Positions 24,001 to 33,000 of a DNA stretch of 64,000 nucleotides are shown here, one piece after another. How positions within the stretch are numbered: position 1 is the first letter of the stretch; each line of letters begins with the position of its first letter. Source of the stretch: Bryobacterales bacterium (GTDB taxonomy: Bacteria; Acidobacteriota; Terriglobia; Bryobacterales; UBA6623); contig OY729428.2 of NCBI GenBank assembly GCA_963422375.2, positions 1,824,001-1,888,000 on the forward strand. Reading direction: 5' to 3'. The position numbers are program-made.

Positions 24001-27000
24001 CGGATAGGGATGGCAGTGATAGGACTTCTGCAACCGCCTCCGACAACGTCGTCATGGTCGGCGACAGATCGCGATGTCGCGCGCCCTGCCCGGCTGGGGC
24101 TGTTGCGGCGATTCGGTACGGTCACTCGGGCGGCAAGGCTCCCGTCGGCGCGAGCGACCGCCATCAGGGATGCCCCGCCCGGGGGCGTAGCCGGTGCCTG
24201 GGCTCCCGGCCCGTGAGGTCGAGGCTCCAATGCGAGCCGACGACTGATCGGCGATAGCAAGTCCTTGCCTAGGCGGTACGCGCGCTCACGTTGCTCGAGT
24301 GCAATGGGGAATCCTCGCATATCGCTAAGAATCAAGATCATTCGCCGTTCATGGCTGCATCTCTCGCTCAGGCTTCGGCCGAAGAGATAGCAGCGGCACT
24401 TCGGCTAGACTTGCCCGAACGCAGTTTTCTCCCGCTTGATGTAGTCCAGATTGAAGACGATTCTAGCCCTGACATCGGCAGGAGGGTTGACACCGTTAAT
24501 CGCACAAGTCTGTCTAGGAACCCTCTAGTACACAGGCGTTCCGTAGGGGACGGGTGTTTCGACACGCCGGATATCGCCAACCCGGGCAATCTTCCAGTCG
24601 CCCGCCTGCCTTCGGAGATAGACCTCTTGGACTTCGTTCCGGTCGGCGTAGACGTACTCGACGCGGACCTCCGCTTCGTGGCCCGTTTGCTTCGGAGCGT
24701 TCATGGCGATGCCCTTGATGTCGCGATTGCGCTGCTTCAGGAACTCTGAGAAGCGCTCCGCGCCCATCTCCTCCAGGCTCTGTCGCAGCGTCCGCTCCAT
24801 CTGGCCCATGTAGCAGGCGAGATAGTCGTCGACGACGCCGTCTCGAGCCGCGTCGAGCATGGCGTAGATTACGTCCCGGGGCTCTGCCTTCCGGGATGAT
24901 CCCAAGCCCAAGAACCCGCCATCGTTGTCGGAGCCGCGCCGCAGGGCATCGAATCCGCCCTGGTTCCAAGCGATCAGCGCGAGTGCCGCCGCGATGAGCC
25001 CGATCGTGACGGACTGGGCCTTGGCGTCCTTGCTCATGGAACGGCTGACCGGCCTGAGGCTCCCCGGCGGATCAGCGTGAGGTCGAGGTTGCCGCTCTCG
25101 TCCACGATCGTCTTGCGCAGGCGCGGCAGGACTTCCTCCATTGTCTCGAGGAAAAGGCGGCTTCGGGTGACCTCCGGGTTCCGCCGGTACTCGGAGGCGA
25201 GCCGCTCGAATCGCGCCGACTCGCCCTGCGCCTGCTGGATCTTGCTGACGCGATAGCCCTGCGAGGAAGAGAGCATCTGCTGGGCCTCGCCCCGGGCGCG
25301 CGGCAGGATGTCATTCGCGTAGCCTTCCGCCTCGTTGACAATGCGGGCGGAGTCTGCCCGAGCCGACGCTACGTCGCGAAACGCGTCCGCTGCTTCCGCG
25401 GGCGGCGTGACGGAGCGGATATTCACGGTTGACAGCGCGACCCCAAGGCCAAGGCGATCGACAAGCTCCTGAGCCCTGCGCCGGACCTCTTCCTGAATCG
25501 CGATCTTCTCGGTCGTCAGGACGTCATCGACCGAGCGCGTGGCGACTTGCCGTCCTAGAGCCGCCTCGACTGCATTCGCTACGGCTCGCTCCACGTCTCT
25601 GGAGCGGAACAGGTACTGCGCGGGATTGGCCACGCTGTACTGAGCGACAGCCCGCACGTTCAGGATGTTCTGGTCGCCCGTGAGGAACTGCGAGAGGACG
25701 GGATCCGCTGGAATGGCGTTTGCCTCGTCCGCGACCTCGCCTCCGATGAATGCTCGCTTGAGCTCGCGCACCTTGAGCTTGTAGACCCGCCCCACCGGCC
25801 ACGGGAAGTGCCATCCCACGCCAGGCGTGACCTCGTTGTCCGCCAGAGCTCCGAAAGTCGTGAGCACCGCCTGCTCCTCGGTCGGGACGACGTAGATGCC
25901 GGTCGCCAGCCAGATTGCGGCAAGGCCGGCTGCGACTTGGCGGCGCTTGCCGTCGCGAGCCCGGTTGGCCGCGGGCGCGCGGGCCGGCCTCTCCGAGGCT
26001 TGCTCCGGATGCGCGACATCGTGCATGTTCTTGGTTACTGCCCCCGCGTCATGAGTCGCAGGAGTTCCGAATCCGCGCTGAGGATAACGGTCGTGTCCTC
26101 GTCCAAGGCCTTGCGGTAGGCCTCCAGCGTGCGCGTCAGTTTGTAGAAGGACTGATTCTTGGAATAGGCCGCTCCGTAGATCCGGGCCGCTTCGGCGTCT
26201 CCCTCGCCCTTTGTCGTCTCGGCCTCCTTGTACGCCTTGGCGAGAATCTCCTCGCGCCTGCGGTCCGCCTCAGCGCGAATGCGTAGCGCTTGCTCCTCTC
26301 CCTCGGCGCGGTACTGGCGCGCGATGCGCTCTCGCTCCGCCCGCATCCGGGCGTAGACGCTCTGCTTGTTCTGTTCCGGCAGGTTGAGCCGCTTCAGCCG
26401 CACGTCCACTACGCGAATGCCGTAGTCCTCCAAGGCTTCCGTGCCGCTCTCCTCGGCGAGCTTGTCGAGCACCTTCTCGGTCTTCGCGATCTCGGGGGAG
26501 ATCGACACGATCTCCTCTAGGTCCAGCCGTGCGATTGTCGCCGCCAAGCGCGACCAGACCAGGTCGTGAAGCCTCATCTCCGCCGCCCGCTCGTTGACCA
26601 CTGTCTTCACGAACGTCTCGGGGTCGGCGATCTGCCATAGCGCGTAGCTGTCGATGCTCAGGTTCTTCTTGTCCTTGGTCAGGAATTCCGAGCGGGGCGG
26701 GTTGTAGACCCGCAGCCGACGGTCGTAGAACCGGACTTGCTGGAGCCACGGGACCTTGACTCTCAGCCCCGCCTCGGTGACGGTGCGAATCGGCTTGCCG
26801 AACCGCGTCACGAAAGCGAACTCGCTCTCGCGCACGGTGAACAGTGTTGACCATGCCAGCAAGAGGCCGAGGAGCCCTAGGAGCCAGGTTCGGTGACGGT
26901 GCAGCGCTGCCCGCCAGTCGAAAGGCTGGCCGGGCGGGGGGGCGTGGCCGTGAGGACGGTGTCCCTCGTGGGCTTCGGAGGGATGGTCGCGTCCATGCGA

Positions 27001-30000: not shown

Positions 30001-33000
30001 GCCGACGACGGCAGTGAACCCTACGTACTTGATCTGCTCCCGCCGGTCGCGATTGATCGCGTGGTCTTCGGAGACAACATGCACAAGTAGACAAAGATAC
30101 CAAACGCCCGCCGGGCGTTCAGTCGACGAATCGCCACGGGAAGTGGCCGCAGTCGGCGTTTCGCCACGCCAGTCGACGAATCGCCACGGGAAGTGGCCGC
30201 AGTCGGCGTTTCGCCACGCCAGTCGACGAATCGCCACGGGAAGTGGCCGCAGTCGGCGTTTCGCCACGCCAGTCGACGAATCGCCACGGGAAGTGGCCGC
30301 AGTCGGCGTTTCGCCACGCCAGTCGACGAATCGCCACGGGAAGGGGCGGCGTCGAATTCGGCTAAGCTGGAATTTCGTTGGCGGCGCATCAGATTCGGTA
30401 TGGTCGCGATTCGACTCGGATCCAATGTCGGCCAGGACCGGCAGGCAAGCCATTCATTGCATTCACACTGCTAGGGCCCGGCCCCGCTCTGCCGCAGGTC
30501 GCCGAATCTCCAGTACCGTTCACGATGACGAGGCCATCCGCGCCCATCGTGAAAGTCTCGCATGCACGGCAGGCATGAACGTCCCATAGGGCAAGCTTGG
30601 CTCAGGAGTCGGCTCGGCCTCTCTGTCCCGCTTCCTCAGACGGAATGCTATCTGGTTGCCGGCTCTCGACGAACCGAGACTGCCGGGGCGCGCACCAAGG
30701 AGTTCTATCCGCGACGGTATGGCTCGGACGATTCGGTCGTATCGCACATCAAGTTCGCATTTCGCCACGAGCCGCTGGATCTTGGTGTCTTAGCGGCTGC
30801 ATTCAAGGCATTGGATGCGGCCGAGCTTGAGGCTTGGGTGAGGGAAGAACCGTTTGGCAAGTTCAGCAGGCGCGCATGGTTTCTCTACGAGACGTTTTCC
30901 GGGATGACTCTCGATCTAGAGAACGCGCACGTCGGTGACTATGCCGATGCCTTGGACCGACGGAAACAGTTTGTCGGACCCGCCCGAAGATCCCCTCGGC
31001 ACCGGGTTGTGGACAATCTCTTGGGAGTTGCCGGTATGTGCCCCACGGTCAGGCGCACGGAGCGGCTGTCACATGCGATGAACTCGCGGGTTGACAGAGC
31101 CGCCCGGGCACTCGTCGAAGGCGTCTCTCCCGCGGTTCTCGCCAGAGCTGTCAACTTTCTGTATACCGAGGAGACTCTCTCATCTTTCGCGCTCGAGGGT
31201 GAGACTCCAAGCGCATCGCGCAGCCAGCGATTCGTCGCGGCACTCAGGGCCGCGCCCGCATTCGACCCCGCGGACAAGGCCGCGCTGACTGACCTGCAGG
31301 GAATGATCGTTGACCCCCGCTACCGGGCCGATGGCTGGCGCGACGTTCAGAACTTCGTGGGGACGACTCGTGCCGGATTCCGCGACCGCGTGGATTTCGT
31401 CTGCCCACGGCCCGCGGACGTAGCTGGCCTCATGGAGGCTTGGATGACCCTGACACGGCGCGTTGTGGACAGCGATGTCGATCCGGTCGTGGCGGCGGCT
31501 GTGGCGGCTTTCGCGTTCGTCCTGATACACCCGTTCGAGGACGGGAACGGCCGCATCCACCGATTCCTCGTCCACCACGTCTTGGCGAAGCGGAAGTTCA
31601 GCCCTCCAGGAGTCATCTTTCCCGTCTCGGCGGCGATTCTGCGCGACAGGCAAGGCTACAGCGCGGTGCTCGAATCGTTCTCTCAGGCGATCCTTCCTTT
31701 CGTCCGCTGGTACATGACACCCGAAAGGGCGGTAGTTGTCGAGAACGATACCGCCGATCTCTACCGCTATTACGACGCTACGGCATTCGCTGAGTTCTTG
31801 TATGACAAGGTTGGAGAGACAGTCAGCAAGGACTTGGAGGAGGAGATTGGTTTCATCGACGTCTTCGACCGGGCGTTCGAGTCGGCTCGCGAGATCGTTG
31901 ACATGCCGGACCGCAAGGCTTCCCTGTTCGTCCGGATTTGCATGCAGAACGGCGGGACGCTCGGTAGGAGCAAGCGGAGCAAGTTTTCCGAACTGGATGA
32001 CGCGGAGGTCGCGGCGATGGAGACGGCCGTCCGCAATGCGATGAAGCGCTGAAGTGAGCGTGCGGCGCGCGGGTGCCGGAACTGCGCCCGATTGGACGCT
32101 GCATGTCTCCGCGCCCGTCCGAGGCAGGGAATAGCCGGGAAATGGCTCGGCTCTCGGATCTGCTGCTACGCGCCCCGTAGGGTCTAGGCTAGCCGGGTGA
32201 TTCCGTGTCGGCGATGCCGTCTGCGACGATGTACACTTGCCGGTGCGCGCCATGAAGAGCTACGCGGCAGGCCCTACGATTCCTCTGCTCGGCAAGCCGA
32301 TCGGCGAGGTTTTCGATGACACCGTGGCGGCACATCCCGACAGGGAGGCGCTGGTCTCCCGGCACCAGTGCTTGCGGCTGACCTTCCGCGAGCTCGCGGA
32401 ACAGGTCGAACGGACCGCGGCCGGGCTCTGGGGGCTGGGCATCCGCCCGGGCGACCGCGTCGGGATGTGGGCCTCCAGCTGCGCCGAGTGGATTTACCTG
32501 CAAGTCGCGACCGCCAAGATCGGCGCGATCCTCGTCAACGTCAATCCTGCCTACCGTGCGCACGACCTCTCCTACATCCTCGAGCGCTCGGCGATGAAGG
32601 CGATCTTCCTGCACGAGAGGGACGCGCGGGTCAGCTACGCCGAAGTGCTGGAGCAAGCCTGTGAGGAAGGTCCGCAGTCGCTCTCTGCGTCCGTGCTCCT
32701 CGGTACGGAGCAGTGGCGAGCGATGCTCGACGCCGGTGTCCGCCCCGAGCCCGGCCCTCGGCACCGGGACGACGTCGTCAACATTCAGTACACCTCGGGC
32801 ACGACCGGCAGTCCCAAGGGCGTCCTCCTGACCCACCGCAACATCGCCAACAACGCCTACTTGGTGGGACGCGGGATCGATTGGAAGTCCGCGGACAGCC
32901 TCTGCCTCCCGGTGCCGCTGTACCACTGCTTCGGCTGCGTGCTCGGGTCGTTGCAGGCGATCGTGTTCGGCGCGAAGCTGGTCCTGCCCTCCGCCCAGTT

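Follow-up and report, generated by a model that had tools for sequence, protein, structure and literature searches.

HflK and HflC of E. coli form a complex with FtsH (PDB 7vhp, 7wi3, 9cz1, 9cz2 and 9paw), and their layout of membrane anchor, SPFH domains and coiled coil is shared by the three SPFH proteins described here. A natural covalent fusion between a P1B ATPase and an HflK protein bears on the role of bacterial SPFH cages for clients besides FtsH. Among the nearest known systems is the Pseudomonas aeruginosa locus PA2439-PA2435, with three SPFH genes in the order K-C-K (PaFlo5/6/7) and the P1B pump HmtA; the paper on the P. aeruginosa SPFH genes leaves the ATPase unmentioned (0 occurrences). 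In mycobacterial effluxosomes (PacL-CtpC/G/V), scaffolds in the membrane likewise cluster P1B pumps, and one of them bears a metal-binding tail rich in His (PMC13460109). The PacL proteins are small and single-pass, neither SPFH proteins nor pump-fused. The preliminary description of the locus had found no account of it. No paper on the fusion itself was found in the literature searched, but the unfused hmtA/PaFlo5-7 cluster was already published and had been missed.

In the window (the whole stretch of 64,000 nucleotides that was analysed), a single open frame of 1013 aa with a GTG start, at 27043..30084 on the minus strand, encodes a P1B ATPase followed by an HflK domain (K1). Residues 75-625 scored 563 bits against TIGR01525 (cut-off 346) and residues 695-979 scored 218.5 bits against TIGR01933 (cut-off 159.4), which confirms the complete ATPase with a C-terminal HflK-like domain described earlier. 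The other genes lie on the same strand. Three nucleotides past the fusion gene starts hflC (26035..27039, 334 aa, TIGR01932 223), and 8 nt past hflC begins a second, stand-alone hflK (K2; 25034..26026, 330 aa, TIGR01933 228.5), so that the order given before, hflC then hflK, was borne out, as was the identity of 34% between K1 and the neighbouring HflK (104/307). K1, K2 and HflC all exceed the HflK/HflC (SPFH3) cut-offs of TIGR01933 and TIGR01932. The earlier text did not include the fourth gene, orf170 (24525..25037), which overlaps the K2 stop and was present by tblastn in 38 of 42 loci; it encodes a 170-aa membrane-anchored NTF2-like protein with a weak match to Rv0361_Cterm and DUF4864/DUF4878 as leads (0.91). 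The arrangement differs from that of E. coli in having two HflK types, one of them fused to a pump, an unlinked ftsH and the order K1-C-K2.

The ATPase part (residues 14-626, 28207..30045) was modelled with AlphaFold2 at a mean pLDDT of 70.7, and the top Foldseek matches of the model were P1B pumps. The model has the MA/MB and M1-M6 helices of this family and the A, N and P domains; the helix count is taken from it, since hydropathy alone gave only 5 segments at 1.5 or above. An N-terminal metal-binding domain is absent from the ATPase part. The CPC motif in M4 (residues 281-283, 29236..29244) is kept in all 42 loci and in 119 of the 120 listed homologs, near-universal as previously claimed, the earlier figure being 116. 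DKTGT (residues 325-329, 29098..29112) was found again in 120 of 120, together with GDGxND in 120 and TGES in 109, and all three Pfam families recurred in 118 of this list, which contains the window's own protein. The M6 motif HQISS (H611, Q612; 28240..28254) is present as reported, but strict HQxSS occurs in only 87 of the 120; among 51 fused sequences M6 reads HQ in 41 and HE in 8.

The nearest solved sequence is sCoaT (PDB 7qbz, E 9.6e-100), a P1B-4 pump. The two share the lack of a classical head domain, the M6 His (H611 aligned to H657) and the M5 Asn (N590); the fusion pump differs by CPC instead of SPC, by Gln instead of Glu658 and by an exit Glu that seems to lie three residues away from its sCoaT position (E96 vs E120). 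Glu658 of sCoaT is used for ligation and release (PMC8880997), and considering that Gln replaces it, the metal is not readable from the motifs. P1B-4 (CoaT/CzcP) is defined by SPC in M4 (PMC13460109), where the fusion pump has CPC, and the HEGxT of M6 is HQISS here, with the His kept and the Glu replaced. The combination of P1B-2 (ZntA/CadA), CPC with M5 Lys and M6 Asp, is not present either: CPC is there, but Asn and His-Gln stand at the Lys and Asp columns, and the score is far under the ZntA equivalog cut-offs. P1B-1 (CopA) pumps are recognized by CPC, YN in M5 and MxxSS in M6. The fusion pump does not carry this set, and the JGI label "Cu+-exporting ATPase" was rejected on motifs, CopA being a separate clade in both trees. 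The fused ATPases form a single clade (FastTree 0.998, IQ-TREE SH-aLRT 94), separate from the sCoaT and ZntA pumps in both. With its P1B-4-like site, CPC and the M6 His, the pump may take one of the divalent transition metals Zn, Co, Cd and Ni as its substrate.

Between pump and K1 runs an amphipathic linker (residues 627-673, 28066..28206), predicted to be cytoplasmic, which ends in RRR ahead of the K1 anchor; it is helical over 637-672 in the model and its top 19-residue hydropathy is 1.08. K1 (27130..28065; E 4.9e-45 against E. coli HflK, 7vhp) has the HflK/HflC layout of a single N-terminal anchor (residues 674-691), SPFH domains that would be periplasmic, and a coiled coil. Two histidine motifs distinguish it: W-x-x-x-H in the SPFH insert (W762-H766, 27787..27801) and D-x-H-P at the junction of SPFH and coiled coil (D871-H873, 27466..27474), each present in 42/42 K1 and 0/41 K2. 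Both also occur in K1 of Pseudomonas hmtA-type operons, with W-x-x-x-H in 84 of 85 and H-P in 85 of 85; stand-alone HflK is without the K1 histidines (W-x-x-x-H in 0/19). Since the subunit joined to the pump is the one that carries its own conserved histidines, these alignments suggest a cage built for metals rather than for the control of protein breakdown. Ahead of its anchor, HflC has an N-terminal tail rich in His (13 His); tails with at least 7 His were found in 22 of 41 loci and in none of 19 stand-alone HflC.

Forty-two loci were retrieved and compared across relatives, with K2 available for comparison in 41. ATPase and K1 are one frame in all 42, and K1-C-K2 is kept in 41, the exception being a contig end. 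The fusion occurs in 55 of 121 genomes of the order. It had been called narrow, not found in 40 genomes across the phylum; this is contradicted by a draw of 300 other genomes, in which 14, from four families outside the window's class, gave a K1 match in a frame of more than 1000 aa, and the 12 of these loci that were retrieved are all single ATPase-K1 frames. Database labels place the fusion in four further phyla; among 5000 plasmid records counted, none covers 80% of it. Other operons have a different transporter joined to K1 in the same slot, either a CDF or a Cu/Zn efflux domain of the SO_0444 family; three unrelated transporter families, two of them annotated as exporters, thus fill it. 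HflC of the operon forms a clade (0.96) sister (0.88) to HflC of the CDF- or SO_0444-fused operons and apart from stand-alone HflC. Tentatively, these operons may constitute a class of SPFH cages whose transporter slot can be filled by a P1B ATPase, a CDF or an SO_0444 permease and whose wall, in the P1B versions, holds a metal site; the periplasmic chamber would hand ions between pump and acceptors, with the cage active in transport, and the P. aeruginosa hmtA locus would be the unfused form.

The genes, the fusion, the intact catalytic motifs, the co-inheritance and the subunit-specific histidines are observed, and the explanation that we prefer, at about an even chance, is that the products of the four genes form an HflK/C-type cage reserved for a divalent-metal exporter, which is tethered to it. 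Taking the 24-subunit alternating ring of E. coli as a guide, HflC would alternate with two HflK kinds, pump-bearing K1 and K2, and K2 in the remaining positions would mean fewer pumps per ring. The pump would drive a divalent transition metal from cytoplasm to periplasm at the expense of ATP. The His-rich HflC tail, presumably cytoplasmic, may replace the pump's missing metal-binding head where it is present; precedents are a His segment feeding a CPC site (PMC13677743) and the His-tailed PacL scaffolds that cluster P1B pumps (PMC13460109). The two K1 histidines could be a periplasmic site accepting or buffering the released ion, and the small anchored NTF2-like protein could be an accessory subunit. 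In this genome (96% complete) no CDF was found and the only other P-type ATPase is CopA-like, which leaves no further inner-membrane exporter of divalent ions among the families searched, which do not include MntP, RcnA or VIT1. The HflC tail missing in 19 of 41 loci counts against the exporter cage, as does the occurrence of the same K1 histidines beside HmtA, a reported importer.

The same cage could work in the opposite direction, as an importer like HmtA: metal in the periplasm would be caught by the K1 histidines and passed to the pump. This we regard as rather unlikely. In the hmtA-type comparison P. panipatensis L103 took the place of the PAO1 sequence, since its genes follow the published order, with one at the PA2436 position. 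Both systems have three SPFH genes, a His-rich HflC tail, both K1 histidines, at positions that align between the two systems, and a pump without head domain bearing CPC and M6 H-[Q/N]. They differ in that the hmtA pump has a gene of its own behind K2, K1 there bears another membrane domain (no Atlas match above 0.79), M6 is HN vs HQ, and no orf170 was seen in the hmtA locus. The hmtA locus rises under zinc shortage (PMC4542158; PMC11761036) and the PA2439 promoter is shifted by Zur (bioRxiv 2021.05.28.446167), but hmtA mRNA is not zinc-repressed and a review says that import by HmtA needs confirming. ZnuA was not found in the genome, and cbiMQO uptake genes lie downstream of the operon in one locus (L153), which fits import and counts against the exporter cage; the genome, however, already has matches to ZIP, four Nramp and CbiM, and the remaining K1 fusion partners are annotated as exporters. 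The pumps are neighbouring clades in FastTree (union 0.849), not in IQ-TREE, and the SPFH genes of the hmtA operon are distant, their joint clade not being in the best tree nor rejected (p-AU 0.41), so direct orthology to that operon was not established by either set of trees. What the fusion does would also inform this unexplained locus and the dispute over whether P1B importers exist, and would assign a metal to the CPC/HQ pump clade.

Many detoxifying pumps adjoin a metal-sensing regulator. None of the ArsR, MerR, CsoR or Fur type was found among 68 neighbours from 17 loci (68 of the 98 listed, part of the remainder being covered in other scans), which counts against the exporter cage and would suit a metal-loading station, for which CcoI/FixI pumps are the model: slow export into the cage chamber would supply periplasmic or membrane enzymes. 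The start is preceded at 9 nt by an extended -10-like element, TG-G-TATCTT (30094..30102, minus strand), whose pattern recurs in 20 of 20 related loci with a placeable start and is probably a leaderless promoter without visible operator; the sigma-70 -35/-10 scan gave 0 promoters and did not pick it up. This conserved promoter, the two putatively periplasmic histidines of the subunit that tethers the pump, the DUF3604 or sulfatase genes that adjoin the operon in several loci and the PPIase downstream of the CDF version would also agree with such a station. No client or regulator gene, however, is conserved across the loci of the scan, and sulfatases are plentiful in these genomes; we consider this explanation unlikely.

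A cage that still works with FtsH, either keeping the pump beside the protease so that its turnover is regulated or serving also as the general HflKC of the cell, seems improbable. The preliminary description placed the cage around a metal pump "rather than, or besides, FtsH", and called this the genome's only hflC-hflK pair, with ftsH elsewhere. Both genomic statements hold: tblastn with HflC and HflK finds this locus alone (3 of the 6 Band_7 matches in the genome are in the operon) and ftsH is on another contig (C1:566210). A sole HflK/C set would speak for FtsH, but FtsH was present in 5/5 tested order genomes without HflK, with HflC over the cut-off in 0/5 (in 64 of the 121 genomes of the order the query gave no HflK match), and in other classes all 6 genomes with the fusion for which the extra match was retrieved hold a separate hflK-hflC pair. 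Since FtsH occurs without HflC and other classes keep a second pair, being the sole pair does not make it FtsH's. Of the E. coli HflK-FtsH contact residues R141, E142 and R185 (PMC13220708), the R185 column is kept in 17/19 stand-alone HflK, in 12/19 K1, including R816 of the window, and in only 3/19 K2; R740 of the window aligns with R141, but this test is weak either way, as even stand-alone HflK do not conserve R141/E142. Predicted topology, co-inheritance, the K1 histidines and transporter exchange in the K1 slot support the pump-centred cage, and "rather than" is favoured over "besides": the cage looks dedicated to the pump. It is very improbable that the SPFH proteins merely cluster and stabilize the pump in a membrane patch, with neither closed cage nor metal site, for while mycobacterial pump activity needs PacL-dependent clustering (PMC13460109) and E. 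coli HflK/C often takes an open nautilus form, K1, K2 and HflC retain full coiled-coil and hat regions and the K1-only W-x-x-x-H is conserved in 41 of 45 fused representatives. The K1-only histidines could separate a passive scaffold from a metal-handling chamber, and since the covalent link between pump and K1 sets the client, its topology and its stoichiometry, a single operon could give a direct readout of what the cage does.

An assembly artefact as the origin of the fusion was rejected, given the single frame in 42/42 loci and the sequence 24525-30084, unbroken and without differences in two public assemblies (possibly the source of the same sequence). A length of 1013 aa is shared by most close homologs. 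A longer start at 30453 was rejected, as it would cross a strain-specific repeat; homologs begin at the 30084 position, where the extended -10 also sits. This 50-bp tandem repeat (4.7 copies, 30120..30354) lies outside the conserved unit: blastn found no further copy in the genome, and in 6 congener loci the 120 nt ahead of the start do not contain it; neither it nor the Fic gene was retained as part of the unit. At gathering score Rfam gave no riboswitch: 8 loci yielded one tRNA, and the window together with 5 more loci yielded no match. Terminator-like sites numbered 5 vs 3.4 expected. Upstream in three loci (L037, L043 and L046) lies a membrane protein of about 250 aa, with no notable Pfam or NCBIfam match, which may resemble NicO/RcnA-type proteins.

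The ATPase-HflK fusion gene was read from the sequence as one open frame of 1013 aa at window positions 27043-30084 on the minus strand. It is followed on that strand by hflC (26035-27039), a second, stand-alone hflK referred to as K2 (25034-26026) and a 170-aa gene, orf170 (24525-25037), with spacings of 3, 8 and -4 nt between successive genes. Residues 75-625 correspond to a heavy-metal P-type ATPase (TIGR01525 at 563 bits) and residues 695-979 to an HflK domain, here K1, with a score over the family cut-off. The fusion itself and the succession of hflC and hflK, both claimed in the preliminary description, were thus confirmed, and ftsH was indeed found elsewhere, on a different contig. 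The start codon at 30084 is supported by the homolog lengths and by a TG-n-TA element that lies directly upstream of the start in all 20 loci with a placeable start. Among the 120 homologs listed, the three Pfam families occurred together in 118 and DKTGT in 120, both as previously counted, CPC in 119 rather than the 116 given before, and strict HQxSS in 87. Pump and K1 formed a single frame in 42 of 42 fetched loci, the order K1-hflC-K2 was kept in 41 and orf170 was present in 38; these locus counts are descriptive and not tests, because related loci are not independent.

The K1 region was matched in 57 of 121 genomes of the order, with no match in 64. The matches comprised 55 frames of about 1000 aa, one split between contigs and one frameshifted; in the latter (genome G313, L157:6736-9761) the gene is spread over three reading frames by two frameshifts, either a pseudogene or a sequencing error. 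One congener, G365, carries two copies of the whole operon (contigs C1 and C4). The fusion had been described as narrow and not found across the phylum; this did not hold, as K1 matches in frames longer than 1000 aa were present in at least 14 of 300 other genomes of the phylum (among the matches listed, 21 weaker ones aside), in four families outside the class. An HflK domain was also carried by 46 of the 150 representatives (50% identity) that lie closest to the ATPase part; 20 clusters were looked up and 6 were labelled, the names being Planctomycetota, Thermoanaerobaculia, Ca. Fervidibacterota, Abditibacteriales and Ca. Sumerlaeota. The labels of the homologs assign the lineage of the window to Bryobacterales. 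The fusion is real, conserved and wider in range than first claimed.

In the AlphaFold2 model of the fusion (pLDDT 70.7, pTM 0.51) the eight P1B helices are followed by amphipathic helices (637-672) and by a helix spanning 674-691 that runs into the SPFH domains and a coiled coil. Since P1B ATPases have a cytoplasmic C-terminus, HflK would keep its usual N-in, C-out topology in the fusion, and its SPFH portion would face the compartment into which an exported ion is released. For orf170, the predicted structure suggests an anchor and an NTF2-like domain. The pump motifs fit none of P1B-1, P1B-2 and P1B-4. Among solved structures, the closest in sequence is the P1B-4 pump sCoaT, whose H657 and E658, aligned with H611 and Q612 of the fusion, are the counter-ion and the ligand/release residue, according to excerpts of PMC8880997. 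All fused pumps fell in a single clade in both trees, FastTree (without two representatives and a plasmid pump that are truncated) and IQ-TREE (36 of 161 rows used).

K1 is distinguished by W-x-x-x-H (W762-H766) and D-x-H-P (H873), each found in 42/42 K1 and 0/41 K2; stand-alone HflK had the first in 0/19 and the second in 1/19. W-x-x-x-H was seen in 41 of 45 fused representatives and in none of 9 K1 domains fused to CDF or permease transporters, three permease K1 having His in the H873 column. The HflC tail contained at least 7 His in 22 of 41 loci vs. 0 of 19 stand-alone HflC. Judging from these sequences, the K1 histidines and the HflC tail may bind metal.

The most likely function predicted for the operon is that of a metal exporter attached to an HflK/C cage of its own. 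In E. coli, HflK/C forms a 24-subunit alternating assembly around FtsH, open or closed (bioRxiv 2024.08.09.604662, in excerpt). The earlier proposal of a cage around the pump and not around FtsH stands in part: five of five operon-free relatives have FtsH and none of these five has HflC over the cut-off, and each of six fusion-bearing genomes from other classes has a separate hflK-hflC pair. The operon HflC also clusters with HflC from operons with CDF- or SO_0444-fused K1, apart from stand-alone HflC (FastTree only). A clean separation from FtsH is weakened, however, because K1 retains in 12 of 19 the equivalent of R185, an FtsH contact (PMC13220708, in excerpt).

The published relative, P. 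aeruginosa PA2439-PA2435, codes for HflK, HflC and one further SPFH protein along with HmtA, and its expression rises in a znuA mutant (PMC4542158) and on zinc depletion (PMC11761036). HmtA has been reported to import Zn/Cu (PMC8456098), a role that a review regards as still needing confirmation (PMC10393844). In the primary study Zur bound the PA2439 promoter, yet hmtA mRNA was not repressed (bioRxiv 2021.05.28.446167), whereas the review denies Zur binding at this site; all these sources are cited from excerpts. The colinear K1-C-K2-pump layout occurred in 79 of 80 proteobacterial loci. By profile alignment, W762, H766 and H873 match conserved residues of hmtA-type K1 (84 and 85 of 85) and have counterparts in 0/86 hmtA-type K2; hmtA-type K1 scored best with fused K1 (212 vs. 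185 and 147). A common origin is not settled by the trees, since a grouping of fused K1 with hmtA-type K1 is absent from the best tree and not rejected (p-AU 0.41), and fused and HmtA-type pumps are neighbours in FastTree and without resolution in IQ-TREE. In P. panipatensis, a 175-aa gene without Pfam match (L103:6466-6993) lies between K2 and pump, the PA2436 position, with cobF downstream.

We consider export the probable direction of the fused pump, because it is the family default, the other K1 fusion partners are annotated as exporters, and the genome has no CDF or other divalent P1B alongside its ZIP, Nramp and CbiM; two CzcA-like RND pumps are over the cut-off. Import is unlikely, although the HmtA link, the failure to find ZnuA in the genome and cbiMQO after one operon speak for it; there, cbiM, cbiQ and an ABC ATPase immediately follow orf170 on the same strand (L153:1338-3718). 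Just upstream of three pumps lies a membrane protein of ~220-250 aa with a G..H...G.DH motif (L043:5403-6158, L046:11729-12481, L037:6088-6750), without match in the family search, which may resemble NicO/RcnA. Genome G221 has orf170 and a 1017-aa DUF3604 protein upstream of the pump (L036:12384-16189), and a DUF3604 gene precedes the pump in L154.

Other transporters are fused to K1 as well. An SO_0444-family Cu/Zn efflux domain scored 352 and 319 bits (cut-off 300), and SO_0444/ArsP permease-HflK fusions with hflC and K2 occur in other Acidobacteriota (L047:8581-10824, L049:3971-6217, L050:9329-11449). Some congeners have a second operon (L139:6687-12981, L140-L144) of SO_0444/ArsP permease-HflK, HflC, HflK, a periplasmic binding protein and a small protein; its neighbours on both sides are ZIP and CusCBA-like genes. 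An Aquibium plasmid (L001:4376-10206) encodes a CDF-HflK fusion, HflC, HflK, a PPIase and then a ZntA-like pump. On a Vibrio plasmid hflK-hflC overlaps nhaA (L005:4886-8273), possibly another transporter-linked HflKC, and at L057 a Na+/H+ antiporter follows the pump.

The searches, which covered the open-access literature, found no publication that describes a fusion of HflK to a P-type ATPase. 'ATPase', 'metal' and 'transporter' never occur in the 2009 SPFH survey (PMC2636767), nor 'ATPase' or 'hmtA' in a 2026 P. aeruginosa SPFH paper (PMC13086221); excerpts of PMC12005517 and an erlin preprint give context. The separate parts and the unfused gene cluster were known already; no published account was found of the fusion, the exchangeable transporter slot or the K1 histidines.

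In the window, a 50-bp tandem repeat (30120-30354, 4.7 copies, 98% identity), occurring once in the genome, stops 35 nt ahead of the pump start codon, each unit having a short hairpin-like stretch. A Fic-family gene (PF02661, 30562-32052, plus strand) is inserted between the pump and a divergent AMP-binding enzyme gene, and was not seen at the corresponding place in the congener loci examined. Both are local features, since in congeners the AMP-binding enzyme gene is divergent from the pump. A tricorn protease gene (20617-23931, plus strand) converges on the operon, and a 1614-aa multi-domain protein (33898-38742, minus strand) is kept near it in congeners.
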